A DNA stretch of 64,000 bases, taken from the NCBI GenBank assembly GCA_023898465.1, contig CP060223.1, forward strand, positions 352,001 through 416,000. Direction: 5' to 3'. The translations under genes were made by a program, and so were the position numbers. The notes beneath the pieces were generated by a model. It saw nothing but the letters and a program-made list of their open reading frames with translations. It did no database searches and was not told where the DNA came from. The DNA is from Candidatus Nomurabacteria bacterium. GTDB taxonomy: Bacteria > Patescibacteriota > Patescibacteriia > HK-STAS-PATE-3. Below, piece by piece: positions 6,272-27,943 of this stretch (positions within the stretch are counted from its first letter, which is position 1; each line of letters starts with the position of its first letter).

Positions 6272-6272
6272 T

Positions 6273-9367: not shown

Positions 9368-10894
9368 ATGGCTGTTTCTGAAAAAATGAAGCGTGAGATT
9401 CGGACGTACCGATTTCTCGAAATACTCCCAGGTGCATTCATTTGGCTTACTTTTGCTGTAACGCTTGTGGCAATCTTTTGGAAGCCGCTCTGGGCGATAG
9501 TTTTCATTATTGTCTTTGACGTCTTATGGCTGGTTCGTATTACCTATGTGCTGACATACATTATTTTAGCGTACACTCGTTACCGCCGGGCAAATAAAAT
9601 TGATTGGTTAGCGCAATGTCAACAGCCAAGATTACTCGGACGCTTCCATCAACTGAAGCATGTAGTTGTCGTGCCTAGCTTCCGAGATGAATTTCATATT
9701 ATCGATACGAGCTTACGATATCTTGTTGAATCAAGTGTGCCTCGCGAGCAAATTTTTGTTGTGCTTGCTCTAGAGGAGCGTGATGGCGAACGCGCGCATG
9801 AACTCGGTCGCCAATTAAGCGAAAAATACGGCCATCAATTTGGTCAGTGGTTGGTTACCTATCATCCAGCTGATTTGGCAGGAGAAATGCCAGGCAAGGG
9901 GTCAAATATCTCCTGGGCTGGTCATAGGATGAAGGAGCGAATTGATGAGCTTGGTTGGAATTACGATGACATTATCGTTACTTCGCTTGATGTTGATTCT
10001 TGTGTGCACCGCGAATACCTGGCCTGCTTGAGCTATGAGTTTATGACGCAAGCCTATCCGCATCGTAATAGTTATCAGCCCATTCCAGTTTTCCAAAATA
10101 ACACTTGGGACGCCCCAGCCTTCACTCGTGTGGTGGCCAGCTCAACTACCTTTTGGTTGCTTTCCGAGACTATACGCAACGACCGCATGTTTACTTTTTC
10201 GTCACACAGCATGAGCTTCCGGGCTTTGGTGGACGTAGGATTTTGGCAGAATGACATTGTCACGGAAGACTCTCGCATCTTTTTGCAGTGTTTAGTCAAT
10301 TACGATGGCGATTATGAAGTTGTGCCAATCTACCTTCCAGTTTCCATGGATACTGTGCAGGGGAGGACTTTTTGGCAAAGTGTGGTTAATCAATATAAGC
10401 AAATTCGTCGTTGGGCCTATGGCACTGAAAATCTTCCGTTTATGATTTGGAATTTTCGTGACATGCCAACAATGTCATTGCGCAAAAAGCTGCGCTATAT
10501 TTGGAATCAGCTGGAAGGGGAGTATTCATGGGCCACGGCCCCTATACTCATTTTTGTGCTAGGTTATGCGCCGCTTTGGGTTGCCCCAGAGGCTGTGCGG
10601 ACAACCGCGCTTTTTCAATCAGCCCCTTTTGTATTACAAACCATTCTCACTCTTTCTCTGACTGGTTTGTTTGTGAGTGCGGCAATTACTTGGATGATAT
10701 TGCCTCCACGGCCACGTAAAGTAAAGCAGTGGCGCAAACTTGCCATGATATTCCAATGGGTAGTGTTTCCGATCACCACTATCGCATTTGGCTCTATTCC
10801 GGCTATAGAGGCGCAAACTCGCTTAATGCTGGGCAAATATCTGGGTTTTTGGACAACTGAGAAGGTGAGGAGCGAGGAATCAAGTAAAGAGTAA
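9368..10894 (+). CDS. Membrane-embedded processive family-2 glycosyltransferase (cellulose/chitin-synthase-like)
   Basis: N- and C-terminal TM bundles. Central GT-A domain with DxD (SLDVDS) and the processive QxxRW motif (QYKQIRRWAYG). Confidence 0.7.
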   Translation: MAVSEKMKREIRTYRFLEILPGAFIWLTFAVTLVAIFWKPLWAIVFIIVFDVLWLVRITYVLTYIILAYTRYRRANKIDWLAQCQQPRLLGRFHQLKHVVVVPSFRDEFHIIDTSLRYLVESSVPREQIFVVLALEERDGERAHELGRQLSEKYGHQFGQWLVTYHPADLAGEMPGKGSNISWAGHRMKERIDELGWNYDDIIVTSLDVDSCVHREYLACLSYEFMTQAYPHRNSYQPIPVFQNNTWDAPAFTRVVASSTTFWLLSETIRNDRMFTFSSHSMSFRALVDVGFWQNDIVTEDSRIFLQCLVNYDGDYEVVPIYLPVSMDTVQGRTFWQSVVNQYKQIRRWAYGTENLPFMIWNFRDMPTMSLRKKLRYIWNQLEGEYSWATAPILIFVLGYAPLWVAPEAVRTTALFQSAPFVLQTILTLSLTGLFVSAAITWMILPPRPRKVKQWRKLAMIFQWVVFPITTIAFGSIPAIEAQTRLMLGKYLGFWTTEKVRSEESSKE

Positions 10895-12767: not shown

Positions 12768-14609
12768 TCAAGTTGTGCTGGCAGATGGATCAAGGTCAAT
12801 CATCCATTCAGGTGGAAGCGATTGAAGTATTTTAGCTCGTTGTTCAGCCGTGCATTCTGGATCTAACTTAAGTAAAATTTGGACTAACTTTTTGTCTCCA
12901 TATACCCGGACTTGCGCTGGTAAGATTTCTTGTATAATCGTTGTATTATTTTTTTTCAGCACTGCTAAAATTGAAGCTTCAAGTTTATCAACTATCTCAT
13001 TTACTTGAAGTTGGTAACTAAGTTTAAGCAATCGGATACTCGGTGGAAAGTGAAATCGTTGTCTCTCCTTTAATTCATTTTTTAAAAAGCTTTGAATGGC
13101 AGTTGAGGAGAGGTGCTCAAGAATATATTGCTCTGTGTCGTAGCTTTGCACAATAAGTTTTTCAATAGCAGATTGCGCAAACTGTAGTGACCGAATGTGT
13201 TGATACACGGTTTCGGTAACATTCCAGCTCGATTGGGTGAGTTCACTCTCTAAGGAAAGTAGTACGGCTAGTTTAATTGGAGGAAGAGCTAAACGAAATA
13301 ATTTTTCCGTACCAATGAGAATATCAGCCTTTGCGAGATCTTCTTTTGTATATGCGCTTGATTTATCGATCGTTAGTATGTGCGCATCAGGGAAAAGTGC
13401 TCGTAAAGCTTTTGCGTTTCCCTCAATACCATAACCACTTGGTTTTATTTCTACACTTCGACATTGAGGGCACTGTAGGGGAATGTTTTGCGTGCGATTA
13501 CAATAAGGACAAAAAAGTCCACGCTCTTGGAGTTTGAGTGGAGTTGCGCATTGCTGACAGCTTGGACGCCAACCGCATTCTCGACAATTGAGACTGTGAT
13601 AACTACCACGTCGGTTTCGGAAGATAATTACTTTTTCCTTTTTAGCTAAGCATTCTTGTATAGCCTGCGTGCTTACTAAGGTGAGTATGCCCCCTGGTCC
13701 CTCACGTTGCTCATTTTTCATGGATGAAATTTGCGTAGTTGTCTGAGAGCCCCAACGCTCACTCCGGTGCCAGGAGCCGCTATATTTTTTTAGCATCTGC
13801 AAGGCGTCTAGACTGGGAATCCGACCCGTAAAAATGAGTCCGCTTCCATGTATTTTTGCTAGCTGTATAGCAAGATTTCGTGCATGGATATGCGGTTGGC
13901 GGTCGGTCTGCTTATACATATCTTCAAACTCATCAGTCAGAACAATACTTTGCAGGTCGGTAAACGGCTCATAAAGCGCACTTAGCGTGCCTAAGACAAG
14001 GAGATTGCCCTGGCGTATCCGTTCACGCGCTTGCCATTGCTCACTGCGGCTGAGCGAGCCGTGTAGGATAAGTGCTTGAAGCGGGAGAACTGCGTCGCTT
14101 TCTGCATAGTGCTCGAGACTTTGGATATCCGGAAAAAGGATAAGGATGCTCTGTCGGTCACGCTTCTTCAACAAGGCATTGAGATATTCCTCGTGAGCGC
14201 GAGGGAAATCATATTGAAAAAAAGTAAAAGAGAATTTCCCACTCTTTTTAACTTGCGCAGGTGTAGCGGAGAGTTTTTGTTCTTTTTTAGTGGGGGAGAG
14301 GAAGGCAGAGCGAAGCGCTAAGCCGACGGAGCTATGGTATTCTTTTGCTGCCCATTCAAGCAATGCTATTTGTTCAGACGTGAAAGCACCGGCCTGAAAA
14401 ACTTCCAGTATCGGCTGTATCGCTCGTGCAGGAACATCACTTTGCGACTTCATTTTTTTCACAATGCCAAAGACCTTCCTACGACGAAATGAAATCCGGA
14501 CTATTTGTCCAGGCTCGCAATGCATCCCCTCAGGTAAGGCGTAATCAAAAAAGCTAAGTTCTCTGGGGAGAGCCAGGGCGGGATAAACCTCGGCAAACTG
14601 TTTTTTCAT
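12768..14609 (-). CDS. priA: Primosomal protein N' (PriA) homologue with degenerate ATPase motifs
   Basis: PriA N-terminal 3'-end-binding region is present. The LHGSLSRSE…QGNLLVLGTLSALYEP…GSGLIFTGRIPSLDAL arrangement fits PriA. The four-CxxC zinc ribbon is present (CRECG…CQQC…CPYC…CPQC). Walker A and DExH appear degenerate (see findings). Confidence 0.7.
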   Translation of the reverse strand: MKKQFAEVYPALALPRELSFFDYALPEGMHCEPGQIVRISFRRRKVFGIVKKMKSQSDVPARAIQPILEVFQAGAFTSEQIALLEWAAKEYHSSVGLALRSAFLSPTKKEQKLSATPAQVKKSGKFSFTFFQYDFPRAHEEYLNALLKKRDRQSILILFPDIQSLEHYAESDAVLPLQALILHGSLSRSEQWQARERIRQGNLLVLGTLSALYEPFTDLQSIVLTDEFEDMYKQTDRQPHIHARNLAIQLAKIHGSGLIFTGRIPSLDALQMLKKYSGSWHRSERWGSQTTTQISSMKNEQREGPGGILTLVSTQAIQECLAKKEKVIIFRNRRGSYHSLNCRECGWRPSCQQCATPLKLQERGLFCPYCNRTQNIPLQCPQCRSVEIKPSGYGIEGNAKALRALFPDAHILTIDKSSAYTKEDLAKADILIGTEKLFRLALPPIKLAVLLSLESELTQSSWNVTETVYQHIRSLQFAQSAIEKLIVQSYDTEQYILEHLSSTAIQSFLKNELKERQRFHFPPSIRLLKLSYQLQVNEIVDKLEASILAVLKKNNTTIIQEILPAQVRVYGDKKLVQILLKLDPECTAEQRAKILQSLPPEWMIDLDPSASTT

Positions 14610-14612
14610 ACC

Positions 14613-15407
14613 CTAATGCGTTTCAAGAATACAGGTGCAATATCCAACCCCAAAAGGATACTCATAGGCCAAAATACGCCCGAAAAAATGTTTGCGATAT
14701 AAGACTCCGAGCAATAAAGAAAGCGGACCGAGTCCAAGCATTTTTGCTTCCTCCGCTTCTTCATTGCTGATGTGGAGAATTGCTTTTTCATCTCCCTGGA
14801 GTAATGCTTCCATGATTCGGGCATCAAGCGCAGAGGCCTTTGGTGTATACCCAGCCGGTGAGTTTTTCCCACGCTTATATGAAAGGTTTGCGCTGGCAAG
14901 CACGGCAACTCTTTCATTTGTCGCAAATATTTCTTCGCGAAGCATTTTACCAAATTCATACTGTGCTCGATTGTTTGTATTTGCCACCATTAAGGAAACG
15001 AGTCGAGCATTTGGTAGGTGTGGCATTGTTTGCATAGCGCTCAGTACAGTAGCGTAGTCAAGCTGCTGACCGCTTTGTAGCAGGAGAGGGAAGCGATGAT
15101 CCTCCGCTCGTTCTTTTAAGCGATGACTAAAAGCAATACTGCCAGGTACTTCTAACTGAGCGCTAAAGTCGCTAAATTCCTTTAAATCACCTTTAAGCGT
15201 TTCACCTACAGTGATTTCCCAAGCGGCAGGGATAGCGCCCTCGTGGGGGCTAAGGATAACCAATAGGTCTGGCTTGGCAGCATAAAGCTGCTGCGCCAAG
15301 GTATGATAAGCCTGGCGAGTTTTTTGCAGTTGATCGCTTGACCCAGGATTTGGCTCTTGGCTTAGCTGTGGAGGATGTGGGGCGATTGCCGCGAATACCA
15401 GCGACAT
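14613..15407 (-). CDS. LigB/Memo-like (class III extradiol dioxygenase fold) protein
   Basis: The N-terminal AIAPHPP…LVILSPHEG pattern resembles the DODA/LigB/MEMO1 family. Weak assignment. Confidence 0.35.
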   Translation of the reverse strand: MSLVFAAIAPHPPQLSQEPNPGSSDQLQKTRQAYHTLAQQLYAAKPDLLVILSPHEGAIPAAWEITVGETLKGDLKEFSDFSAQLEVPGSIAFSHRLKERAEDHRFPLLLQSGQQLDYATVLSAMQTMPHLPNARLVSLMVANTNNRAQYEFGKMLREEIFATNERVAVLASANLSYKRGKNSPAGYTPKASALDARIMEALLQGDEKAILHISNEEAEEAKMLGLGPLSLLLGVLYRKHFFGRILAYEYPFGVGYCTCILETH

Positions 15408-15413
15408 GCGTGC

Positions 15414-16883
15414 TTATTCTTCAACTTCAAAGGTGATCTTTTCGCCTGTTGGGTGAATATCTAGGGCGCGATCAGTAGTCCAAATGAGATTACTCCATTT
15501 CAAACCCAGTTGGTCAAAAACGCCAGGACTTGGGATACCGCGTTTCACACCGTCGGTGATTAAGTAGACACCGTCGGCTCCAGGGGAGGTGACGATTTCA
15601 CCATCCTTGAATTTTACCGGATCACCAATTGGGTATTGCTCAAGCTCTGCACGACTGACCGTAGTCCATCGCTGATACTTGAAGCGTGACCGTAGAATTT
15701 CCTTTGAGTAAATAGGATGACGAAGTCCATTTTCTACATAGACAATGCCGCCACTTTCGCGTTCCTGAAAAAGTACGCCAATCGGGTGAACGCTGTCCAC
15801 CTTAATCTCATCGCCATCAGGATAGATGGAGAGATCATCGTAGCTAACATGAATCAGCTCTTCAGGATTAAATCCGAGCTGACGGAAAACCTCTCGTGAA
15901 CGAATTGGGCGCTTTTTGCCATCTGCTAAGAGGTAGACGCCACCGTCAGGGGATTGGAGAAGGCTGAATTCAGGATATTTAATTGGTGTTGCGATTGGAT
16001 ACGCCTCGAGGACGAGTGGGTCTACATCAATAACTTTTTCTGGGTCATAGGAGCTATAGAAGGCTGAGCGAGAATGGAAAGGATGCCGCTTGCCATCTTT
16101 GATTAACCAAATACCGGCCTCACCGCGAGCTCGGAGGAGTGCCCCATCAAAATAGCGGACACTAAACCACTCTTGCCAAATCTTGGCAAAGAGAGAGTTG
16201 CCACCCCATCGTGGATCTCCGCCACCATAGGCGCCTACGTAAGGGTTGTAGGTGTAGAGGGCGGCAGTTGCCTCATTATCAGGAGTGATTTCAATACCAT
16301 CAACTGTGGTTTTGGGAATGCCAACGCCCCAACCAGAAACAGTATAGCCGCGTGACTGCATATCAGCTAGATAGCCATTTTGAATGCGATTACCCGCAGA
16401 ATCAACCTGGGTGCCAAATCCGAAATAGGCTGGATCGCAGTCTCCAGGACAGCCATAGCCCAGCGCCCGGTCAATAAGTTCCTGTGATGCAGTTTTTCGG
16501 GCTCGGACAAGTCCTGATTCTTTTTCAATCAAAACTAGGTAAAACTGTGGACTTAGTCGATATTTTGCTGCAGCCTCGGCAATAAGTCCGGCAGCTGATT
16601 TACGCTCGCCCTGCGCGTTATAACCGCTCACATCTTTTAGTGCGCCGCCGAGAGTGTTTAAGAAACGCTGAATTCGCCCTTCATTCATTGACTGCCAGTT
16701 GAAGAGGTCAGTGTTATTCAGCAGGTTATTTTTGTTAAAACTAAACGCTAAACCAGCCTGGGGAAGGCTGATGGTGAGTATGGTCCCTATGACTGCGAGA
16801 AACAGCGTAATTTTTCGCAGATACGGGTTTGAAGTGTTCCGCATGGTAGATAGAAGTATACTGGTTTTTCTGCTATAGTGCAA
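15414..16883 (-). CDS. Secreted or membrane-anchored protein with an N-terminal lysozyme/transglycosylase-like region and four C-terminal repeats of about 55 aa
   Basis: N-terminal TM/signal sequence. Has an 'EKES' motif reminiscent of SLT-type hydrolases. Repeats of the form G-x-Y/W-L-I-x-D-G-x-K/R-R/H-P-I-x-S-x-x-V/A-F are present, e.g. GIWLIKDGKRHPFHS, GVYLLADGKKRPIRS, GIVYVENGLRHPIYS, GVYLITDGVKRGIPS. Confidence 0.55.
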   Translation of the reverse strand: MHYSRKTSILLSTMRNTSNPYLRKITLFLAVIGTILTISLPQAGLAFSFNKNNLLNNTDLFNWQSMNEGRIQRFLNTLGGALKDVSGYNAQGERKSAAGLIAEAAAKYRLSPQFYLVLIEKESGLVRARKTASQELIDRALGYGCPGDCDPAYFGFGTQVDSAGNRIQNGYLADMQSRGYTVSGWGVGIPKTTVDGIEITPDNEATAALYTYNPYVGAYGGGDPRWGGNSLFAKIWQEWFSVRYFDGALLRARGEAGIWLIKDGKRHPFHSRSAFYSSYDPEKVIDVDPLVLEAYPIATPIKYPEFSLLQSPDGGVYLLADGKKRPIRSREVFRQLGFNPEELIHVSYDDLSIYPDGDEIKVDSVHPIGVLFQERESGGIVYVENGLRHPIYSKEILRSRFKYQRWTTVSRAELEQYPIGDPVKFKDGEIVTSPGADGVYLITDGVKRGIPSPGVFDQLGLKWSNLIWTTDRALDIHPTGEKITFEVEE

Positions 16884-17015
16884 GCGATGAGTGGCTTGCT
16901 AAAAATCAATTCTCAAGCAGTAAAACGTGCATGAAATGAGTAAGTTTGTTACTCAATACATCGTTTTGTCTACTCATCTGTTACGGATTAAGATGATGTT
17001 TCAATTGCAAAACCT

Positions 17016-17744
17016 ATGTTAAAGCTTTTTGGTGTACGTATTGATTCTCTGACAAAGGATGAACTGCGAAACAAGTTATTTGCGTTTCGTCAGAGCAGGG
17101 GACACATGATTGCCACGGTGAATCCGGAAATGTTGATGGAGGCTCGAGAAAATAAGGATTTGCAAAAAGCACTCGAGCAAGCTGATCTTCGTTTACCAGA
17201 CGGATTTGGCGTTATGCTGGCGGCAAAGTATCGTGGTCAGGCTTTAGCAGATCGACATCCAGGAATTGATATTATGAGCACCCTATTAGCACAGGCGGCC
17301 AAACAACAGGAGCGGGTGTATCTCTTTGGTGCTAAGTCAGGTGTGGCAGAAAAAGCAGCTGCTCGTCTGGTAAAAAAACATCCAGGCCTACAGATTGTCG
17401 GAGCAGAAAGTGGATTTCGTTTTTGGGGTATTCGCTTATCTGATCGTGAAATGCGTGATCGCATCAAACGCGCAAAACCAGACTTACTCTTCGTAGCGCT
17501 TGGTATCCCTAAGCAGGAGCTATGGCTAGCAAAAAATCTGCCACACCTTTCATCAGTGAAAATCGCTGTAGGCGTCGGTGGCGCTTTTGACGTTTTTGCC
17601 GGAAACGTACGTCGAGCACCTAGTTTCCTGCGAGTTATTGGCTTAGAATGGTTTTGGCGCCTCCTTGTACAACCATGGCGCTGGCAGCGAATTATCACTG
17701 CTACCTATCGTTTCTCACTGGCTGTAATTCGCGCGAAAGAATGA
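17016..17744 (+). CDS. WecB/TagA/CpsF-family (GT26) glycosyltransferase
   Basis: VNPEMLMEA…DGFGVMLAAK…FVALGIPKQELW is the GT26 pattern. Confidence 0.8.
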   Translation: MLKLFGVRIDSLTKDELRNKLFAFRQSRGHMIATVNPEMLMEARENKDLQKALEQADLRLPDGFGVMLAAKYRGQALADRHPGIDIMSTLLAQAAKQQERVYLFGAKSGVAEKAAARLVKKHPGLQIVGAESGFRFWGIRLSDREMRDRIKRAKPDLLFVALGIPKQELWLAKNLPHLSSVKIAVGVGGAFDVFAGNVRRAPSFLRVIGLEWFWRLLVQPWRWQRIITATYRFSLAVIRAKE

Positions 17745-18892
17745 AATTACCCAGCACCACATTTTCACAGTTAAGTATTTTACTCGGAGCAATACTGGGC
17801 GTGGGCATGTTTGGTTTGCCTTATTTGACAGCCCGAGCGGGTTGGACAAGTCTTTTACTTTGGTTTTTGGTAGCCGGGTTTGTTTTACTTATTGTTGGAT
17901 TTTGCTATATCCGCATTTTGCATAATAGTCAGGGCCAACACCGGCTACCCGGTTATGTTGAACAGCACTTAGGGCATCGTTGGAAACAGGCAGCAATTTT
18001 CACCACCACGATGAGTATTTGGGGCGCCTTGCTCGTATACGCTATCCTAGGCGGACAATTCTTGCATGATTTATTTGCGGATAGTGTGGGAGGTAGTTCG
18101 CTATTCTACCTCTTAGTTTTTTATGTGAGTGCGGCGGCTCTCCTTTATGTACAAGCAAAAACAATTGCTCGTGTGGAAATTTTATTGCTTTGTTTCTTCC
18201 TTGTGCTTCTGGCGATGTTATTTATCACAGGATCACGAACTGTGCAGTTTGATTTTTCTTCTTGGGATATTCGATACTTTATTCTGCCTTACGGCGCAGT
18301 ACTTTTTTCACTCTGGGGCATTGATGTGGTACCCGATGCAGCTGAGTTAGGGGAGAGGAGTGAAAAGCATATGCGTAAAACGTATTTTATTGCCCTAGCG
18401 AGCGCTGTGCTTATTTATTGCTTGTTTGTTTATGCAATACTTTCAATGAGTGGCATGGCGAGTAGTCGAGACGCACTTAGTGGCTTGGTTGGATTATTGC
18501 CACAAAAAGTTTTATTGTTCGGCTATATAATTGGTTTCATTGCCACCTTTACCTCTTTCATTAGTTTGGGAATGAATCTGCACAAGACTTTTCAATTTGA
18601 TTATGGTCAATCTAAGCACCTCGCGCTTTTTTCTACTTTAGCTTTCCCATTGGCCGTAGCTCTAGCTGGAGTTAGTGATTACTTAAATGTCATGGGTATT
18701 GTTGGATCGCTGGCAGTTGGTGCCGAGGCAATTATTATCCTGCACATGTATGATCGTTTTTCCCATGGCAGAGCACATCTCTATCGGCAGCGCGACTGGC
18801 TTACTTTTCTCACTCGTCCGCTCATGCTACTCTTGGGATTCGGAGTTATCTTAGGCATTCTTACCCCATTTTTATTGAAGTATTATGGCTGA
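17741..18892 (+). CDS. APC-superfamily amino-acid permease-like membrane protein
   Basis: The ATG at 17741 overlaps the upstream stop (ATGA). Has about 11 TM helices. The N-terminus resembles Trp/Tyr (HAAAP) permeases. Confidence 0.45.
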   Translation: MKLPSTTFSQLSILLGAILGVGMFGLPYLTARAGWTSLLLWFLVAGFVLLIVGFCYIRILHNSQGQHRLPGYVEQHLGHRWKQAAIFTTTMSIWGALLVYAILGGQFLHDLFADSVGGSSLFYLLVFYVSAAALLYVQAKTIARVEILLLCFFLVLLAMLFITGSRTVQFDFSSWDIRYFILPYGAVLFSLWGIDVVPDAAELGERSEKHMRKTYFIALASAVLIYCLFVYAILSMSGMASSRDALSGLVGLLPQKVLLFGYIIGFIATFTSFISLGMNLHKTFQFDYGQSKHLALFSTLAFPLAVALAGVSDYLNVMGIVGSLAVGAEAIIILHMYDRFSHGRAHLYRQRDWLTFLTRPLMLLLGFGVILGILTPFLLKYYG

Positions 18893-20321
18893 TTTGACGG
18901 CACCTCGAGTCCGATTTGCCCCTTCGCCAACTGGTGAGCTGCACCTCGGTGGATTACGGACCGCATATTATGATTGGTTACTTGCTCGCAAGTATGGCGG
19001 TACATTTGTTTTACGTATCGAGGACACGGATAGGACACGCTATGTAGAGGGAGCAGAAGAGCGCTTGTTAGCAACTCTCCAACAATTAGGCTTGCAGCCA
19101 GACGAGGGTCCGGGCCTGGGTGGTGAGTATGGACCATATCGTCAATCTGAGCGGCTAAGCATCTATCATGAGGCGATACAAGAGTTGATTGAGAAGAAGC
19201 AGGCATATTATTGTACTTGTACACCGGAGCGATTAGAAAAAATGCGTGCTGAGCAAAGCGCAAACAAGCAAGCTCCAGGCTATGATCGACATTGTCGTGA
19301 TCGTTATAATGAAAAACCAACTGAGCCGCATGTAGTACGTTTTCGCATGCCGGATAATGAAAAAATCACGGTAAATGATTTCTTACGGGGTAACTTAAAC
19401 GTTGCTACTAGCACGCTGGATGATTTTGTTATTCTCAAGGCTGACGGGTTTCCCACCTATCACAGCGCAGTGGTCATCGATGATCATGCTATGCAGATTA
19501 CGCACGTTTTGAGGGGCGAGGAATGGTTACCATCATTACCAAAGCACGTTTTGCTTTATCAGGCCTTTGGATGGGAAGCGCCGGTTTTTGTCCACCTCCC
19601 GCTCATCTTAGGTAAAGACAAGAAAAAGCTTTCGAAACGCCATGGCGCGCATTCAGTAGAAAAATTTTTGCAAGACGGTGTATTGTCTGAGCCTTTGTTA
19701 AACGCGATTGCTTTGCTGGGATGGCACGCCTCTGATGATCAAGAAAAATATACCCGCCAGGAATTATTAGCAAAGTTTTCACTAGAAGGATTGCAAAAAT
19801 CTTCAGCAGTTTTTGATCCGGAAAAATTAGCCTGGCTCAATGCGCAGTATATCAAAACAATGGATATAAAAGACTTGAGCGTGCTTGCCCGGCCTTATAT
19901 TTCTGATGTGATCGCTCCGCAATATCTTGAGCGATTAGATGAGGCGCTGCCACTCGTAATTGAACGAATTACACAGCTGAGTGAATTACCTGAGCGGCTG
20001 AGCTTTTTACAGAACGAGTTACACTATGATCAGGAAATCGTTCCCTTCAAAACACAGAGTAGGGAAGAGGCGCATGCCGCGCTTCAGCAAGATATGGATT
20101 GGCTGATGGCGTACAATGGTGAATGGGGTACGCAAGCTTTAGAAAAATTCTTCCATGAGCAAGTAGAAACTCTGGGTAAAAAAGTGGGAGAATATTTTTG
20201 GCCCTTGCGTGTCGCCTTGAGCGGCAAGAAAGCCTCACCTGGGACATTTGAGCTGCTGCATTTCTTCGGTAGGGAAGAGGCGCAAAAGCGCATTCAACAA
20301 GCATTGCAAGCGCTTCAATAA
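18885..20321 (+). CDS. gltX: Glutamyl-tRNA synthetase
   Basis: HIGH-like PSPTGELHLGG and KMSKS-like KLSKRHG, with the class I GluRS architecture. Confidence 0.9.
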   Translation: MADLTAPRVRFAPSPTGELHLGGLRTAYYDWLLARKYGGTFVLRIEDTDRTRYVEGAEERLLATLQQLGLQPDEGPGLGGEYGPYRQSERLSIYHEAIQELIEKKQAYYCTCTPERLEKMRAEQSANKQAPGYDRHCRDRYNEKPTEPHVVRFRMPDNEKITVNDFLRGNLNVATSTLDDFVILKADGFPTYHSAVVIDDHAMQITHVLRGEEWLPSLPKHVLLYQAFGWEAPVFVHLPLILGKDKKKLSKRHGAHSVEKFLQDGVLSEPLLNAIALLGWHASDDQEKYTRQELLAKFSLEGLQKSSAVFDPEKLAWLNAQYIKTMDIKDLSVLARPYISDVIAPQYLERLDEALPLVIERITQLSELPERLSFLQNELHYDQEIVPFKTQSREEAHAALQQDMDWLMAYNGEWGTQALEKFFHEQVETLGKKVGEYFWPLRVALSGKKASPGTFELLHFFGREEAQKRIQQALQALQ

Positions 20322-20332
20322 TAGTTAGTCGC

Positions 20333-20392
20333 AGGCGAGGAGTTTATCCTCGCCGAATCCAAACGCCCAAGATAAATTCTTGGGCTACGCGT
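20333..20392. repeat. Left copy of an inverted repeat pair (about 58 bp) containing two internal hairpins
   Basis: 53 of the first 55 nt are identical to the reverse complement of 22770..22824. It contains hairpins CGAGGA-gttta-TCCTCG and CCCAAGA-taaat-TCTTGGG. Begins 12 nt after the gltX stop. Confidence 0.6.
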
Positions 20393-20526
20393 GAATGAGT
20401 ATCTTCAGCAATAAATGCATTCACACAAGCGTAACAAGAGTAAGACTTGTGCGATATACAGTATGTTAACGGTTTTTTGTGAGGACTAGCCAAAAACTTT
20501 ATCTCGTGCTATAGTATATAGGCAAT

Positions 20527-21852
20527 ATGGGGGCAAAAAAGCTCAACCAAAAAGCAAAATATCTACGCATTAGTATATGCACCCTCCTGGTCGCAATAAT
20601 CGCGGCTGGCGGCTTTTTGTCATTCTCATGGCAGCAATTAGCTGGTATTGCGAAAGCTCAAGACGTTAGTATTCCAGATGAAACAACAACCGAGCTCATT
20701 AATCTCAATAGTGATATTGAAAATAAGCGCGATGAAATTAATGACTTAGAAAAGAAGAGTCAAGCCTACCAGCAAAATATTAACAAGAAACTCCAGCAAT
20801 CGCAGTCAATTGAAACGCAGCTTTCCACTTTAGAGGATCAAATCGCTCAGACGGAAACCGATCTCGAAAAAACCAATCTAGAGGTTGAGAAGTATGGATT
20901 AGAAATACAGCAAGTAGAGGGATCAATAGCCAAGCGAAATGAAGAAATAGATGCGGCAAAAGATCGAATCGGTGAGTTTATTCGAGTCATGCATCGCAAT
21001 GATAGTCGCACATATTTAGAAATTTCTTTACTACATGATAACTTCTCGAGTTATTTCATGCAGGAACGGGCGGTAAAGGATATTGAAAATGAAACCAAGA
21101 AGGCGCTTGATCAGCTGCATGTGTTAAAACAGGGTCTAGAGGATGATCTAGATACCTTAACTGACAAAAAGCGTGAACTCGATGAGGCAAAAACACGTTT
21201 GGAAAGTACTAAAGATGCGCATGCACAGGAGTTAGAATACCAACAGTTGCTTTTGACTCAGGTGCAAGGGGAGTCAGGTGAATTACAATCATTGCTTGAT
21301 GAGGTCCAACAGCAGGTTAATCAGGCCACTTCCGAAGTTTCTGTACTTGAGAATCGTTTCCGCGACCGTCTCTCTGAGGAAAATATCGATTTAGATACTT
21401 TACTGCAGGCTCAAAATGACTTTATTTGGCCAGTAAATCCAACTCGAGGCATTAGTGCTTATTTCCATGATCCTAGCTATCCTTATCGCGGCTATTTTGA
21501 GCATAACGCTATTGATGTCCCGACGCCTCAAGGCACTCAAGTTCGGGCTTCCGCCGATGGTATAGTAAGTATTGCTCGTGACACAAATTGGACCACCGAC
21601 AGCAGGGGACGACGAATTCCAGCCTATAACTATGTTTCCATCATTCACGGTGGCGGTATTTCAACGGTCTATGGCCACTTAAGTGCGGTATATGTGTCGC
21701 CAGAGCAATTTGTCCGCAAAGGAGAGGTGATAGGATTAAGTGGGGCAACGCCTGGCACGGCTGGTGCTGGACTCTTTACGACCGGACCACACTTGCACTT
21801 AGAGTTTCGACTTAACGGTATTCCAGTTAATCCTTTGAACTACTTGCCGTAG
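20527..21852 (+). CDS. EnvC-like coiled-coil protein with a C-terminal M23/LytM peptidase domain that retains catalytic residues
   Basis: Signal/TM sequence. About 270 aa are heptad-rich and predicted coiled coil. The M23 motifs HNAIDV…D…YGH…GPHLHLEF are present. Confidence 0.8.
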   Translation: MGAKKLNQKAKYLRISICTLLVAIIAAGGFLSFSWQQLAGIAKAQDVSIPDETTTELINLNSDIENKRDEINDLEKKSQAYQQNINKKLQQSQSIETQLSTLEDQIAQTETDLEKTNLEVEKYGLEIQQVEGSIAKRNEEIDAAKDRIGEFIRVMHRNDSRTYLEISLLHDNFSSYFMQERAVKDIENETKKALDQLHVLKQGLEDDLDTLTDKKRELDEAKTRLESTKDAHAQELEYQQLLLTQVQGESGELQSLLDEVQQQVNQATSEVSVLENRFRDRLSEENIDLDTLLQAQNDFIWPVNPTRGISAYFHDPSYPYRGYFEHNAIDVPTPQGTQVRASADGIVSIARDTNWTTDSRGRRIPAYNYVSIIHGGGISTVYGHLSAVYVSPEQFVRKGEVIGLSGATPGTAGAGLFTTGPHLHLEFRLNGIPVNPLNYLP

Positions 21853-21882
21853 CATTCTTGTGTGAATGTTGTCGAATTGCCG

Positions 21883-21908
21883 CAGGCCTTTACCGGGCCT
21901 GTTTTGTT
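21883..21908 (+). terminator. Rho-independent terminator after the M23 peptidase gene
   Basis: CAGGCC-tttaccg-GGCCTG followed by TTTTGTT. Confidence 0.55.
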
Positions 21909-22014
21909 AGGTACTATGTTCATACTGCAACATAGGGAGAGGAGGGCTTCCCATTGTTGGCGTAAGCTACTCCTGCATATTGACAAAGGACTGTAGAGCA
22001 TTGGAGGGTTAACC

Positions 22015-22668
22015 ATGCGTTGGAAGAGCATGTCTTACCTGGCCTTCTTGATGGCCTTCATCGTCAGTCTCGGTACGTGGACGGGCGCTCAGGCAGCTGA
22101 GGAAGAGGTCTGTGATCCTCAGCCGGTGATCATGTGCACTTCGGCCTACTATGACTTCATGAGGCTCCTCACGGACGGTAACTGCTCGACTGTGGTGACC
22201 GAAGGGGAGAGCTCCTGGACCTTCAATTCGTGGCCACTGCTGTACTGCACGCAAGTGCCGGCAACGCTCAACTACGATGACTACTTCAGCACCGTGTCGA
22301 GTACGATCGAGCTGCGCGACGAGCATCCTTCGTTGAGCTTGATGAGTGACGGCGAGTGCTTCGAGGTCTACGCGGCGTGTCAGGGAGGTGCCTACGGCGT
22401 CACGGTGATGTATACGCACGCTGATGGATCGATGAGCTACGTCGGACAGCCGGGTGATTGCCCAGTCCAGATCAGTGGCGCCATTGCACTCAAGTTCGAC
22501 GGCGAGGCGCGCGAGCTCTACGTCGACGAGGGTTTTCGGACTCAAGTCTATCGAGTCGATGACCCACTTGGCTCACAGCACGCTCGAACCCTTCTACCGG
22601 ACCAGGCCGATACCCAAAGCGATAGGGTAGCGACCGACCAGTTCGCTGAAGTGGTATCCACGCGCTAG
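22015..22668 (+). CDS. Small secreted cysteine-rich protein encoded by a compositionally foreign (about 60% GC) gene
   Basis: RBS GGAGG 7 nt upstream of the ATG. Signal peptide MRWKSMSYLAFLMAFIVSLGTWTGAQA. Eight Cys in the mature part. Third codon positions are strongly G/C-biased, and spot GC is about 60% against about 43% background. No recognisable family. Confidence 0.55.
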   Translation: MRWKSMSYLAFLMAFIVSLGTWTGAQAAEEEVCDPQPVIMCTSAYYDFMRLLTDGNCSTVVTEGESSWTFNSWPLLYCTQVPATLNYDDYFSTVSSTIELRDEHPSLSLMSDGECFEVYAACQGGAYGVTVMYTHADGSMSYVGQPGDCPVQISGAIALKFDGEARELYVDEGFRTQVYRVDDPLGSQHARTLLPDQADTQSDRVATDQFAEVVSTR

Positions 22669-22673
22669 TTCCC

Positions 22674-22731
22674 AGCTCGGAGCAAGTTACTTACTTAGGT
22701 GAGTAGCAGCTCCGAGCTTTCTTTCTTTAAA
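22674..22731 (+). terminator. Hairpin plus T-rich tract after the GC-rich gene
   Basis: Perfect 10-bp stem AGCTCGGAGC…GCTCCGAGCT with a 25-nt loop, followed by TTTCTTTCTTTAAA. Confidence 0.4.
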
Positions 22732-22766
22732 GAAGCTATTACAAGCGAGAAGTATAATGCATCTAC

Positions 22767-22824
22767 GCTACCCAAGAATTTATCTTGGGCGTTTAGATTC
22801 GGCGAGGATAAATTCCTCGCCTGC
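22767..22824. repeat. Right copy of the inverted repeat pair
   Basis: It is the reverse complement of 20333..20392 with two substitutions and a small terminal indel. Lies 158 nt beyond the ftsQ stop. Confidence 0.6.
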
Positions 22825-22981
22825 TCTTAGAGGGGAGCATAACCTGTGTAACTAATATAGTGTCGCACAATATATCTTCTACGTCGCTATAACCATATAA
22901 TGCAATAAAAGGCCTATTCCTAGCATCTAGGCAGATAGTGCGAAATTAGCCTCTATTTTGCTCTCTACGGCGTCTTTTACC

Positions 22982-24022
22982 CTATTTTAGGTATACACGC
23001 TCTCCAAATCTCACATCAATATATCGTAAGCTTTCTGGATGTACGCTCGGGTCTTGCAAAGTTCGCTGTAGTTTATTGATCTGCGCTTCAATATCATCTT
23101 TGAGGACATATACTTGCCAGCCAGCTTCGGTGACGATATGAAATTCAGGTGTAAAATATAGCAGCTGTTGTATATCACATGTAGACTCAGGCAGATCCTC
23201 GCTTTCATTTGTATTCGCAGCTAGATTTGTATTCGTTGTTTTATTTGTGTTACTTATGACATCTGAGTCATCCTCTACAGGTATATTTGCCTCAGAAGGA
23301 GTATTCACGCAATCAAGTTGAGGTATAAGTACTTTTTGCATAGAAAAGTCACTCGGAAAGCTATCAGTAAATTTTTGTATCCCGTGTAAGATGTTTGCAT
23401 CTATTTTTTGACTCCCCACATCAACACTCAACTCATTCTCATCTTCAATACGCAATAAGTTAAGCTCCTCATCATTATTTTGTATTTCTGAAATGATAAA
23501 GCCATTTTCATCCATGAAATATTTTTTTTCGCGTGACTGCCAAATATATTTTGCTGATTTTGCTTGGATGCTGATAGTGAGTGTATTTGGGAAGTCTTTT
23601 TGGATGGAGATATTTTCTACTCCTAAGATGTTGGCTATCGCCTGTTCAAGATGGTCGCCAAACCATAAGGGTCGTAAAATAAAATAGTTTTGGTTGGGTA
23701 TGACAAGTAGTGTTCGTTTACTTAACAACACATCTACTTGCGTGGCAATTTGCTGCTCCAATTGAGTAGTGCTATCGATGAGCTCGATGTGTATTGATGA
23801 GATGCGGAACATTGGCGAGTTCATAATAACGTACCAGAGCAACCCAAATACAAGCACTTGGAGAATAAGAAGTGTGCGGTTCCGCCAACGAGATTGGAGA
23901 CGGGTTTGTTCGCTTGGAAAAAGTGGATTACTACGATGCGAATAATGCACCTCGCTCGTAGCAGGCTTCGGGAGTGTTCGTCGTTTCCGACGTGAAAATA
24001 TACGAGAAAGGAATCGCCGCAT
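22982..24022 (-). CDS. FtsQ/DivIB-like cell-division protein
   Basis: Basic N-terminal tail, one TM helix, then a POTRA-like region (ISSIHIELIDSTTQLEQQIATQV…). The C-terminal domain is Asn/Thr-rich. It is the last gene of the greA-lysS-serS-alr operon. Confidence 0.55.
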   Translation of the reverse strand: MRRFLSRIFSRRKRRTLPKPATSEVHYSHRSNPLFPSEQTRLQSRWRNRTLLILQVLVFGLLWYVIMNSPMFRISSIHIELIDSTTQLEQQIATQVDVLLSKRTLLVIPNQNYFILRPLWFGDHLEQAIANILGVENISIQKDFPNTLTISIQAKSAKYIWQSREKKYFMDENGFIISEIQNNDEELNLLRIEDENELSVDVGSQKIDANILHGIQKFTDSFPSDFSMQKVLIPQLDCVNTPSEANIPVEDDSDVISNTNKTTNTNLAANTNESEDLPESTCDIQQLLYFTPEFHIVTEAGWQVYVLKDDIEAQINKLQRTLQDPSVHPESLRYIDVRFGERVYLK

Positions 24023-24032
24023 AACTTCCCTA

Positions 24033-25154
24033 TTATTTCACAATGTGTCGCGGGAGCAAAGGATGGATGTGGGTAATTACTTCATAGTTAATAGTGCCCA
24101 TATCTTTGGCAATATCCTGTGCGCTTAGTTCCTCTCTCCCCTGCCGGCCGATAATAACCACTTCGTCTCCAGCTTTTGCTTGAGGAATTAGTTCACAATT
24201 TACCACACTGAGATTCATGGATAGGCGGCCTAAAAACTTTGCTACTTTCCCTCGCAGCAGTACCTGACCATTATTAGAGAGTGATCGTTGCAGGCCCTCA
24301 AAATACCCGATAGGAAGTACAGCCACTCGCATTTTTTTCTTCACTCGATAGGTGCGATCATATCCGATTGTCGTGCTAGGCGGCAGTGTTTTAATTGCGA
24401 GCACTCGAGTTTTCCAACTTAGCACTGGACGAAGTTTGAGGTCTTGTATTTTTTTTAGCTCCGGGGCTGGCCACAAACCATACATGCCTAAACCTACTCG
24501 CAGCATGTCATAGCGCATCTTAGGATACTTCAGTACCGCGGCGGTGCAGCTAATATGACGAATAGCTTTTTTATCAAGTACTACCTGTAACTCTTCAACA
24601 CATTCCTGGAAACGCTTGTTTTGCTGAAGTGTAAAAGACTTGTTATTACTTTCTGATTGCGCAAAATGAGAAAACACGCCATTCATTTTTAGCGCTGGTT
24701 TTGCTAGCAGTAGTTTTTTTAGTTTTGCGAGCTCGTTTGGCAGGAAGCCGATCCGGCTCGTGCCAACATCAAGCTTAAGATGAAGAGAGAGGCGTTTTTG
24801 TAAGCTTGTAGGTAGGGCGCGTATCTCTTGGAGTTGGGCAAACGAGTGCAATACAAGGGAGATATTATTTTGCACCGCAGCACTCGCGCTCTGAGTATCC
24901 CAGTAGCTTAAAACAACAATTGGTTTGCGTATGCCCAGAGCTCGTAACTCTAGCGCTTCGTCAAGATTCGCCGTACCAAATACGTCCACGTTGTTTTGAA
25001 GTATCTTTACTACCTCAGGTGTTCCTAGTCCGTAGGCGTTTGATTTTACCACTGCCATAAGCTTCGCATTTCCGCTGATACGTCGAAAAGCCTTGGCATT
25101 ATGTACAAGCGCCGATTTACTCAGCTCAATCCAAGTAAATTCTGTTTTAGGCAC
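24033..25154 (-). CDS. alr: Alanine racemase
   Basis: The PLP-lysine motif AVVKSNAYGLG and a TIM-barrel plus C-terminal beta domain. Confidence 0.85.
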   Translation of the reverse strand: MPKTEFTWIELSKSALVHNAKAFRRISGNAKLMAVVKSNAYGLGTPEVVKILQNNVDVFGTANLDEALELRALGIRKPIVVLSYWDTQSASAAVQNNISLVLHSFAQLQEIRALPTSLQKRLSLHLKLDVGTSRIGFLPNELAKLKKLLLAKPALKMNGVFSHFAQSESNNKSFTLQQNKRFQECVEELQVVLDKKAIRHISCTAAVLKYPKMRYDMLRVGLGMYGLWPAPELKKIQDLKLRPVLSWKTRVLAIKTLPPSTTIGYDRTYRVKKKMRVAVLPIGYFEGLQRSLSNNGQVLLRGKVAKFLGRLSMNLSVVNCELIPQAKAGDEVVIIGRQGREELSAQDIAKDMGTINYEVITHIHPLLPRHIVK

Positions 25155-26442
25155 GGGGGCGAAGTTCTTTTAGGCCAACAATTTTCTGCAGAGCCTTAGG
25201 TATCTTTACGCTGCCGTCTTTCTGCTGATGATTTTCCAGGAGTGCAATCAGGATGCGCGGTGAAGCGATGACAGTATTGTTTAGTGTGTACACAAATTGT
25301 CGCTCGCTCCCCTCTCCTTCGCCTTTCGTTTTGATGTTTAATCGGCGGGCTTGCCAGTCGCTGAGGTTTGAGCTGGAGTGCGTTTCTCCATACCCTTGTC
25401 GGCCCGGCATCCATGTTTCAATATCAACCATGCGGCGTTTACCAGCCCCCATATCCCCCGTCGAAGTTTCAATGAGTTGATATGGTAAGTCGAGATGCTC
25501 TAACATTTTTTGAGAAATATCCAGCATGGTAGTAAACCATTTTTCTGCTTCAGCAGCCTCAGGTTTACATAGCACGACTTGCTCAACTTTTACGAATTCT
25601 CTCACACGATAAAGTCCCTTTGTGTCTTTACCATAGCTGCCAATTTCTTCGCGATAACATTGACTAATACCGCAGAGGAGTTTTGGCAATTGCACTTCTG
25701 GAATAGTTTCATTTGCGTAGTACGAAAGTAGTGCAGGCTCAGAAGTGCCGGCTAAATATAGCGCCTCGCGATCATCCGCTGGAGTTTCACTGCCTGGACT
25801 TTGTAGTGAAAAGATTTCATTTTTCCCAAAAGGAAAATGACCACTTCCGTAAAGCGCAAAACCCTTAATAGCAGTTGGAGGTGTCATTAAGGTAAAGCCA
25901 GCTTTTTGCATTTCCTGCAAGCCCAGTAAAAGAATTGCCTGTTGTAAAAGCACAGCTTCGTTTTTTAAATAGTATCCACGGAAGCCGGCTACTTGAGCGC
26001 CTTTCTCTAGATCGAGAATATCCAGAGCAAGGCCGAGGCTAATATGATCCTTTGCTTCAAAGGAAAATGTCTTTGGTGTGCCGACTTGCTTGATCACCTT
26101 ATTGCTACTTGCGTCGGGGCCAATCGGAGCTCCTTCCCAAGGTATGTTTGGCATGCGCCAAAGCATTTCATCACGCTCGAGAGTTAACTCTTTTAATTTT
26201 GCTTCCAAGTCCTGCAGCCTTTGCTTAAGCTCCTTTGCCTGAGTGATCTGGGCAGGATCAGATTGTTTGCCTTGCTTAGCCAGTGCATTTCTCTCTGCTC
26301 GTACAGTTTCTGTTTCGCTGAGCAGTGCGCGATACTCTTTGTCGACTTGAAGAAAGCGATCAAAGTCAATTGATACCCCCTTGTTTTTTATGGCCTCGCG
26401 TACAATGTCCTGATTAGCCAAAATGAAAGAAGTATCAAGCAT
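25147..26442 (-). CDS. serS: Seryl-tRNA synthetase
   Basis: N-terminal coiled-coil arm and class II motifs (…FRGYYL…, GSGHFPF). Confidence 0.9.
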
Positions 26443-27943
26443 GATCGTTGCTCCGTAAGCTTGGAAAAAGTATACATTCTCGCAGACTGTTTGCGTTGGT
26501 AAGTATGGCAGTTAATCGATCAATACCAATGCCGATACCAGCGGCTGGTGGCATGCCATACATAAGCGCCTGCACATATTCCTCATCATGTGGTTGTGCC
26601 TCATCATCCCCTGCTTCACGCATGCGCTGTTGCTCAAGGAATCGGTCGCGCTGATCAATTGGATCATTTAACTCGCTGAATCCATTTGCTAACTCAGTTG
26701 AGGCAACTACCAATTGGAAACGTTCAACATAGCGCTTATCATCCGGCTTTGCTTTTGCGAGCGGAGAAAGCTCAATTGGATGATCAATGATAAAGATGGG
26801 ATTGATGCATTCAGGACGAACGAATTTCTTAAAAATGCTATCAATTATTTTTCCTCGTCCATCTGACGCTGCTACCTCGACGCCGCGGCGTTCAGCTTCA
26901 TGGGCTAAGGCATCCCGCTCTGGGAAGCGCTCAATATCCAGCTTAGCGTATTTGCGCACTGCATCACGGAAAGTCATTTGAGGGATTTCTTTTGGCCAAG
27001 TAATATGCTTATCGCCAAAAGCAAGCGTGTCACCCAGTTCAGTTGCTTTCAAAATGTTTGTGAAGAGCTCCTGGGTCATCTTCATTAAGGCTTGGTAATC
27101 CGCGTAGGCTATATAAAATTCCACCTGAGTAAATTCAGGGCTGTGGTCACGATCAATTCCCTCATTACGGAAGCAGCGACCGATTTCGTATACTCGCTCA
27201 TAGCCACCGACCAGCAGACGTTTTAAATAAAGCTCAGGCGCAATGCGTAAGAACAGATCCTGATTAAGTGTATCGTGATGAGTAATAAAAGGCTTAGCGC
27301 TGGCTCCTCCAGCCTGTCCTTGGAGAATTGGTGTTTCTACCTCTAGGAATTGTTGACCATCCAAAAAGCTTCGAATCGCGCTTATAATTTTTGCCCGCGT
27401 GCGAAATCTATTTTGAACCTCGGGGTTAGTTAAGAGATCAAGCTCTCGATGCCGAAGTCTTGTTTCAGCTTCACTTAAACCTTTGCGCTTATCAGGCAGT
27501 GGGTAAAGACTCTTACTCAGTATCTGATATTCCTCAACCTGAATAGTTTTTTCTCCTCGTCGCGTAGTACCCAGAGTGCCAGTCAGGCTGACAAAATCAC
27601 CCAGGTCTACCAGGCTGGTCCACTTTTCAAAAGCGTCATCCCCCACCTTATCTTTTGCGAGCGAGAGTTGTATTTTTCCACTCTCATCTTCAATATCACC
27701 AAAGCAGAGCGTGCCATGCAGTCTAATAGCTCGCAGTCGTCCATAAAGTGTTACTTTTGTTTCCGCGGTAACAAGTGCATCAAAATCAGAAAGTAGCTCT
27801 CCTACTCTATGCGTTCTGGAATTTTGTGCTCGAGCTGGATACGCGAAAAGCCCTTGGCTCTCCAGAGTGGCCCGTTTTTCCTTCCTGAAACGATGCTGGT
27901 CAAGTTCTTGTGTTGGCATACCAAATCGCCTGGAGTGTATCAC
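26435..27943 (-). CDS. lysS: Lysyl-tRNA synthetase, class II
   Basis: OB-fold anticodon-binding N-domain and class II core (…FRNEGID…, GIGIDR). Confidence 0.9.

Follow-up and report, generated by a model that had tools for sequence, protein, structure and literature searches.

Two oppositely oriented copies of a hairpin-ended repeat flank a resident M23 peptidase gene in a Candidatus Nomurabacteria genome, one of them enclosing an orphan gene

An inverted repeat bracketing 2.5 kb of DNA between gltX and an ftsQ-like gene was analysed in a 64-kb stretch of the genome of a Candidatus Nomurabacteria bacterium (positions 352,001 to 416,000 of contig CP060223.1; hereafter the window, whose own numbering is used throughout). 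The bracketed segment holds a gene for a peptidase of the M23 family (hereafter M23) and an open reading frame (ORF) for a cysteine-rich protein. Judging from the sequence, we propose with moderate confidence that the two arms of the repeat belong to two insertions of one small non-autonomous element, which would have entered in opposite orientation the non-operonic spacers on either side of a resident M23 gene. Copy A (99 nt) would be the bare unit, and copy B (968 nt) would have the same ends around an 867-nt core with a high GC content at third codon positions (GC3). The proposal builds on four observations: the copies have sharp ends in common, the orthologous sites in relatives have neither of them, copy B has a core of foreign composition, and the hairpins at the ends carry compensatory changes.

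The inverted repeat, as delimited by a repeat search, consists of two 54-nt arms that are complementary at 52 positions (96%) and separated by 2386 nt. An earlier note on this DNA had described near-perfect arms of 58 nt, each with two short hairpins; the repeat and its hairpins were both confirmed, the greater length taking in a few extra, weakly matching bases. Hairpin 1 of each arm reads GGCGAGGA-RTTTA-TCCTCGCC, with a perfect 8-bp stem and a 5-nt loop. Hairpin 2 reads GCCCAAGA-TAAAT-TCTTGGGC, again with a perfect 8-bp stem (7 bp in the second stem of the right copy) and a 5-nt loop. The same note held that the hairpins lack T-tracts, which has to be corrected: a partial T-run (GTTTGGATTC / CGTTTAGATT) follows hairpin 2 in the outward direction from the segment, and a terminator scan flagged this hairpin as terminator-like. 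RNA folding of the arms compared with shuffled controls gave z values of -4.6 to -5.4, and GC-rich perfect hairpins of at least 7 bp are almost absent from the rest of the window. The repeat halves were found at these two sites only within the 64 kb, allowing up to three mismatches, and none of 100 dinucleotide shuffles contained even one match to the half-repeat patterns. Logan contigs from two other samples are 99.8-99.9% identical to the window and collinear with it across the region, so the arrangement is not an assembly artefact; the inverted-repeat pair is present, arranged in the same way, in at least three independent assemblies.

Each arm is the core of the right end of a longer unit. 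Copy A begins 10 nt past the gltX stop codon and copy B 4 nt past the M23 stop, and the left end of both is the 12-mer CTTGTGTGAATG, which occurs only twice in the 64 kb at up to one mismatch. In shuffles of the left spacer, 12 nt were shared with the 48 nt following the M23 stop in 0 of 5000 cases. A local alignment of the right ends spans 76-78 nt with gaps, at 96% identity over the last 54 nt and about 68% over the roughly 22 nt before them. For copy A, nhmmer returned an E-value of 4.8e-31. The homology stops abruptly at both outer boundaries. Divergence between the copies is uneven, with 12/12 and 52/54 identities at the ends versus about 68% in the middle, which suggests that the ends are the constrained part. 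No terminal inverted repeats were detected within a unit, whose ends read CTTGTGTG... and ...CGCCTGC. Because A and B lie in opposite orientation, their right ends form the 54-nt inverted repeat.

The layout of the right end is 5'-GCAG-hairpin 1-10 nt-hairpin 2-CTAC-3'. When hairpin 2 is reverse-complemented it matches hairpin 1 at 15 of 21 positions, among them the ATTTA loop and the closing GA/TC; the differences amount to three compensatory stem pairs. Folded as single-stranded DNA, copy A forms three hairpins (z = -5.8); in the first, the 12-mer region is paired to the beginning of the right end. Copy B has a different hairpin, located 25 nt in from its left end.

The locus was compared with contigs of five relatives, L004 (gltX 55% identical), L005/L006 (gltX 57%), L127 (M23 62%), L128 (a partial M23, 68%) and L129 (M23 51%). 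Synteny was read over L004, L005, L127 and L129, the upstream gene being cut off in L129, and in part over L128, whose M23 is truncated by the contig. All five have gltX, then M23, then the ftsQ-like gene convergent to them, with M23 identities of 45-68%. Where the flanks are present the fuller order is wecG-permease-gltX-M23 facing ftsQ-like-ddl-alr-serS, with alr and serS beyond the ftsQ-like gene in L004, L127 and L129. Orthologs of M23 over its full length are present in L004, L005, L127 and L129, and the alignment with those of L004 and L005 is at 45-47% identity; the neighbouring genes show 55-57% (gltX), 43-45% (alr) and 56% (serS) identity to the same relatives, values consistent with vertical descent. 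Since M23 has the same place, orientation and orthology in five relatives, it is resident and not cargo. The repeat and the cysteine-rich ORF were found in none of the five (0/5), and therefore the repeats were added later. The earlier note had proposed to look in close relatives for an empty site between gltX and ftsQ, and had counted a common gltX-M23-ftsQ arrangement with the same repeats as a sign of an ancestral, non-mobile state: the relatives have the gene order, but neither the repeats nor the orphan ORF.

These comparisons bear directly on the model of that note, in which a single 2.5-kb non-autonomous cassette bounded by terminal inverted repeats brought M23 and the cysteine-rich gene together between gltX and ftsQ. 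The 54-nt inverted repeat does bound the segment and no recombinase is encoded inside it; what survives of the model is this repeat, insertion-like, lineage-specific DNA without a recombinase of its own, and a foreign gene in one piece. However, the arms are the right ends of two separate units, each with its own second end, and M23 is orthologous, in the same position and orientation, in the five relatives. Nor was a target-site duplication, which the note had proposed to look for, found around the segment, whose flanks (TTAGTC on the left, TCTTAG on the right) have only the dinucleotide TC in common. We thus regard a single cassette as highly improbable. It is also very unlikely that the arms are substrates of RecA, or of a recombinase encoded elsewhere, between which the M23/orphan segment is inverted. 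Such an inversion would fit 54-nt inverted repeats flanking a segment that contains a promoter, but all assemblies recovered have one orientation, in which M23 is in its ancestral direction, and the promoter and the genes would flip together, so that only a small effect on expression would be expected. In addition, no recombinase was found among the approximately 30 window ORFs that were scanned (the window has 57 ORFs of 150 aa or more).

The boundaries of the inserted DNA could be placed against conserved blocks of the spacers. In every relative the motif GGGGAG lies 3-22 nt after the M23 stop, and a conserved box, GTCGCACAATATAYCTTNTAYG, follows about 20-35 nt beyond. GGGGAG is present in 5/5 relatives; the box is matched within 0-5 mismatches in L004, L005, L127 and L129 and is more diverged, though recognisable, in L128. 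In L004 the M23 and ftsQ-like stops are about 115 nt apart. In the window this ancestral spacer resumes 7 nt after the end of copy B, at 22832, and the extra DNA 3' of M23 therefore begins right after the stop codon and reaches to 22824. On the gltX side of the gene, the spacer is 205 nt long in the window, compared with 59 nt (L004) and 132 nt (L127); it has a conserved -10 region, TGCTATAGT. Without copy A this spacer would be 106 nt long, and without copy B the distance from the M23 stop to GGGGAG would be 11 nt, both within the range of the relatives.

The core of copy B contains the cysteine-rich ORF, which has a GC content of 58% and a GC3 of 0.72, compared to 0.37-0.43 in the neighbouring genes. 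This composition argues for a real coding sequence derived from a donor of higher GC content. The predicted protein is an orphan: a search of 5.8 billion clusters returned no homolog but itself, and an exhaustive HMMER search gave nothing more than a repeat-like match over 37 aa to an unannotated protein of 806 aa. Neither Pfam nor NCBIfam yielded a match, tblastn against plasmids and phages was negative, and the AlphaFold model, with a pLDDT (predicted local distance difference test) of 39, was unusable. No DNA paralogous to the core was detected elsewhere in the window. The coordinates of these and the surrounding features are collected in Table 1.

Table 1. Positions of the two repeat units, their parts and the neighbouring features in the window
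Feature	Position	Strand	Details
gltX	18885-20321	+	
Copy A, 99-nt miniature unit	20331-20429	-	12-mer (20429-20418), 11 nt, about 76-nt right end (20407-20331)
Left arm	20331-20384	-	Core of copy A right end; hairpins 20334-20354 and 20365-20385
Left-end 12-mer of copy A, CTTGTGTGAATG	20418-20429	-	Exact match
Promoter-like site	20487-20515		Upstream of M23
M23 gene	20527-21852	+	EnvC/MepM-like, long coiled coil and M23 peptidase domain (Pfam PF01551, 7e-23; NCBIfam); outside any inserted unit, flanked by A and B
Copy B, 968-nt unit	21857-22824	+	Same 12-mer, 867-nt GC-rich core, same right end
Left-end 12-mer of copy B, CTTGTGTGAATG	21857-21868	+	Exact match
Hairpin and T-run	21882-21902	+	Inside copy B, 30 nt 3' of M23 stop; terminator scan
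Orphan gene, 217 aa	22015-22668	+	Hypothetical protein USN53882.1; signal-peptide-like N-terminus, cysteine-rich; GGAGGG ribosome-binding site 7 nt upstream
Long-loop hairpin, AGCTCGGAGC ... GCTCCGAGCT then TTCTTTCTTT	22673-22727	+	Terminator-like site of the orphan gene; read by eye (loop limit of the scan 8 nt)
Inner part of copy B right end, diverged (GAAGTATAATGCATCTACGCTA)	22749-22770	+	Gapped match of about 68% to A 20385-20407
Right arm	22771-22824	+	Core of copy B right end; hairpins 22771-22789 and 22801-22821
Ancestral M23/ftsQ-like spacer	22832-22887	+	GGGGAG 22832-22837; conserved box GTCGCACAATATATCTTCTACGTCGC 22862-22887
ftsQ-like gene, 346 aa	22982-24022	-	Convergent

In the mechanism that we propose, the two units would have arrived by separate insertions, possibly through local hopping, and would have been mobilised in trans by an enzyme encoded elsewhere. 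The most plausible mobiliser would be a HUH/Y1 enzyme recognising hairpins in single-stranded DNA, of the RAYT or TnpA(IS200/IS605) kind. Such an agent is favoured because the unit has hairpins at its end, no inverted termini and no target duplication. At present the hairpins may act in RNA, as 3'-end stem-loops of the gltX and M23/orphan-gene transcripts.

Several results weigh against these insertions. The case for mobility is drawn from one locus with two known copies, and a profile of the 99-nt unit detected no further copy in the 64-kb window or in about 75 kb of relatives. JGI metagenomes, searched with the exact hairpin 2 and with a degenerate inner-half pattern, yielded nothing or unrelated simple hairpins, and two viral scans of IMG/VR yielded no copy. 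The left end amounts to 12 nt, with no hairpin common to A and B. At the right end the tag GCAG precedes hairpin 1 in both copies, but hairpin 2 has GTAG in front of it in copy A and a degenerate GCTA in copy B. Neither a target sequence nor a duplication is evident for the individual units, which are flanked by TTACG and GACTAA (A) and by GCATT and TCTTAG (B), and the scanned ORFs include no transposase, RAYT or recombinase. Lastly, the 867-nt core may be either the cargo of a full-length form, of which A would be a deletion derivative, or a later insertion nested into a bare copy. Two other searches were negative as well. The repeat had no blastn match among plasmids and phages, and the pattern GGCGAGGANNNNNTCCTCGCCGAA, run against species-representative genomes, matched more than 120 unrelated high-GC genomes by chance and no Nomurabacteria, the second hairpin being present at none of these sites.

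The pairing maintained in the stems could also be explained by a cis-acting structure of the host that was locally duplicated around M23 and retained by selection. Such a structure could consist of protein-binding operators, in which the dyads of a pair stand 31 bp apart and the pairs themselves 2.4 kb apart, so that a DNA loop might close, or of RNA elements, acting either as 3'-end stabilisers or as a long-range stem that RNase III would cut in a transcript reading through from gltX. The three compensatory changes with an unchanged ATTTA loop agree with this, as do the differences between A and B, which fall in a loop and in the spacer and never in a stem, and the scarcity of comparable hairpins in the window. 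Both arms lie on one potential plus-strand transcript, where their duplex would reach -106 kcal/mol versus about -58 kcal/mol for the local hairpins. Furthermore, L127 has in its gltX-M23 spacer, at 7880-7930, a pair of perfect palindromes related to each other, TGACTTAAGTCA and GCCACTTAAGTGGC, with about 33 nt between them; their position is the same, and their sequence is unrelated to that of the window hairpins. However, the structure is lacking in 5/5 relatives despite the conserved gene order, so that neither M23 nor gltX needs it to function. As the left arm is situated upstream of the M23 promoter, the M23 transcript would not hold both arms. The shared 12-mer and the foreign DNA in one unit are also left unexplained. 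We consider a selected host structure unlikely and retain the two insertions as our preferred explanation.

Within the segment, the content listed in the earlier note was recovered in full: a promoter-like site, M23, a hairpin followed by a T-run and a GC-rich cysteine-rich ORF, with no transposase or integrase. The hairpin and T-run 3' of M23 likely constitute its present-day terminator. The three proteins of the locus are annotated as USN53881-USN53883, under the locus tags H6760_01800/01805. The label given to gltX was verified, whereas that of ftsQ is backed by synteny, the 346-aa ftsQ-like gene occupying the ftsQ position adjoining alr and serS, and in domain searches only by sub-threshold POTRA_1/FtsQ_DivIB_C hits. 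All the scanned ORFs are housekeeping genes or of no known function. In Rfam searches two tRNAs alone reached gathering scores, and only noise was returned for the region at E ≤ 5. Three sizeable ORFs of 490, 285 and 489 aa (window 4799-7130 and 15414-16883) had no Pfam match; the third (489 aa) keeps its position in relatives, adjoining a LigB-family gene. The gene ddl, for D-Ala-D-Ala ligase, is located between the ftsQ-like gene and alr in L004, L005, L127 and L129; in the window it is missing, with just 10 nt (24022-24033) between these two genes, and tblastn with the L004 Ddl found no copy in the 64 kb.

The spacer between M23 and the ftsQ-like gene has features of its own. Its blocks are GGGGAG, followed by G.GTCG.A.AATATA..TT.TA.G and, close to the ftsQ-like stop, by GCC(T)CTATTTTGC; they are conserved in six lineages, among which protein identity is only about 45-60%. 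The conserved box was located at 10820-10845 in L004, 5621-5646 in L005, 9348-9373 in L127, 2181-2206 in L129 and about 842-866 in L128. It is laid out as an arm of about 9 nt, an AT-rich 8-nt centre and a YTAYG arm, faintly resembling a dif/Xer site. The conserved spacer has no consensus RNA structure on either strand and no conserved start codon, and a small ORF over the box was dropped as a candidate, its start codon varying among lineages. This unstructured DNA box stands exactly at the junction where the plus-strand genes on the left meet an unbroken 41-kb minus-strand run on the right, and the cumulative GC skew peaks nearby, at about 23-25 kb. A link with the replication terminus could be drawn from this, the arms being opposed Ter-like sites of fork arrest or being tied to a dif site. 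However, the switch in skew was not seen in two of four relatives of the same gene order (L004 and L129), ribosomal-protein and rpoA genes lie within 30 kb, and the locus tag H6760_01800 places the site about one third along the record and not near its midpoint. Moreover, the arms are lacking in relatives and the insertion stops 37 nt outside the conserved box, and we hold a terminus function to be extremely improbable. The minus-strand block on the left of the window keeps a positive skew.

Other lineage-specific features were noticed around M23. L005 (3153-4215; also L006) has an extra 236-aa ORF of its own between gltX and M23, with hairpins nearby; this ORF matched nothing in Pfam and shows no resemblance to the orphan ORF of the window. 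The spacers around M23 thus look like a recurrent landing place for lineage-specific genes. In L004, an 18-nt direct repeat, GGAGAGCTTKCGTCGYAC, with 16/18 identities, sits at the gltX 3' end and just after the M23 stop (9383-9400 / 10792-10809), which may be due to chance. The strain contigs L001 and L002, compared over 14527-27076, showed no difference from the window over 14527-23005 (8.5 kb), followed by 28 substitutions in 23006-26318, mostly synonymous, four of them common to L002. About 180 nt to the right of copy B there is thus an abrupt boundary, that of a recombination or a sweep.

Genomes of Patescibacteria (or Candidate Phyla Radiation, CPR) are compact, of about 1 Mb, and have few recognisable mobile elements, and the route by which they gain lineage-specific genes is unclear. 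The locus described here displays, with boundaries at the level of the base pair, a foreign orphan gene for a secreted protein lying within a small hairpin repeat, between its two ends, and adjoining a cell-wall hydrolase gene on whose opposite side lies an empty copy of the same repeat. Should more copies exist in the genome, elements of the REP/REPIN type (repetitive extragenic palindromic sequences and their hairpin-forming doublets) would be extended to a new phylum and tied to gene capture; if there are none, the locus would be a local curiosity. In either case it teaches that genes enclosed by a long inverted repeat do not necessarily form a cassette, synteny having revealed the enclosed gene as resident.

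Several known systems were set aside. Integron attC cassettes require core sites R'' (RYYYAAC) and R' (GTTRRRY), which are not seen at the boundaries CATT/CTTGTG and CCTGC/TCTTAG (by eye). For a group II intron (5' GUGYG, domains V/VI at the 3' end), no such Rfam hit was obtained at E ≤ 5 in 20250-23050, and the 99-nt copy is too small. Modules of Xer-dependent integrative mobile elements (IMEX/dif) do not fit either: copy B ends 37 nt before the sole dif-like box, with GGGGAG in between, and the arms lack the 11-6-11 layout (by eye). The repeats of diversity-generating retroelements have the wrong geometry, and the two substitutions found here, the only ones, are not adenine-specific.

Other systems come closer. 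As in the composite transposons Tn5 and Tn10, a host gene is enclosed by a pair of inverted copies of the same element, their like ends turned outward, but the flanking units encode no transposase and there is no sign that the bracketed M23 segment ever moved. Miniature inverted-repeat transposable elements (MITEs) and mobile insertion cassettes (for example MIC231, Correia elements) are likewise small, intergenic and devoid of transposase, with a long variant carrying a passenger gene; unlike them, neither A nor B has terminal inverted repeats or a target-site duplication. The palindrome-associated transposable elements (PATEs) derived from IS200/IS605, which depend on a Y1 HUH TnpA, have in common with our units that the ends are asymmetric, with no terminal inverted repeats, that hairpins lie close to one of them, and that both a target duplication and a transposase inside the unit are lacking. 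They differ in that the left end has here no common hairpin and the right end has two hairpins instead of one, and in that the 4-5-nt target 5' of the left end is not common to the copies (TTACG for A versus GCATT for B); a common CTT appears only if the start of the element is set at GTGTG, these first three bases being then the target. Neither TnpA nor TnpB was found among the scanned ORFs.

We know of no description of REPs in Patescibacteria. As described, REPs are units of 20-40 bp with stems of 6-13 bp and GTAG tags that may degenerate to GYAG; they form head-to-head heterodimers of partners with different stems and short spacers, and are found downstream of ORFs, between unidirectional or convergent genes (PMC3733652, Di Nocera et al. 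2013). The four 21-nt palindromic units of our locus, with GC-rich stems of 7-8 bp, fall within this range of unit and stem lengths. At their outer foot stands an unpaired GCAG for hairpin 1 in both copies and GTAG for hairpin 2 in copy A, where copy B has GCTA. The units are paired head-to-head, with different stems, a 10-nt spacer and the tags outward. Like REPs and the REPINs and bacterial interspersed mosaic elements (BIMEs) built from them, they are extragenic, located directly 3' of ORFs at a unidirectional or convergent junction, and cause no target duplication. On the other hand, REPs are defined by a high copy number, compared to just two dimers in 64 kb here, and their loops mostly count 2-4 nt, compared to 5 nt here, where the stems are perfect. 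Furthermore, each dimer is here joined to about 45 further nt ending in the conserved 12-mer, one copy encloses an 867-nt gene-bearing core, and the scanned ORFs contain no RAYT. In form, then, the right end is a REP/REPIN-like head-to-head heterodimer, but a high copy number is lacking within the DNA examined. We count the units among the small palindromic intergenic repeat elements, of which we know no prior description in this phylum. It is possible, although quite doubtful, that the 12-mer left end and the REP-dimer-like right end together define an undescribed class of asymmetric, hairpin-ended non-autonomous elements in Patescibacteria, able to carry a single foreign gene, with a loaded form of 968 nt and an empty form of 99 nt. 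Such a class, if real, would provide a cassette-like route of gene gain to ultra-reduced genomes that encode almost no mobile-element machinery.

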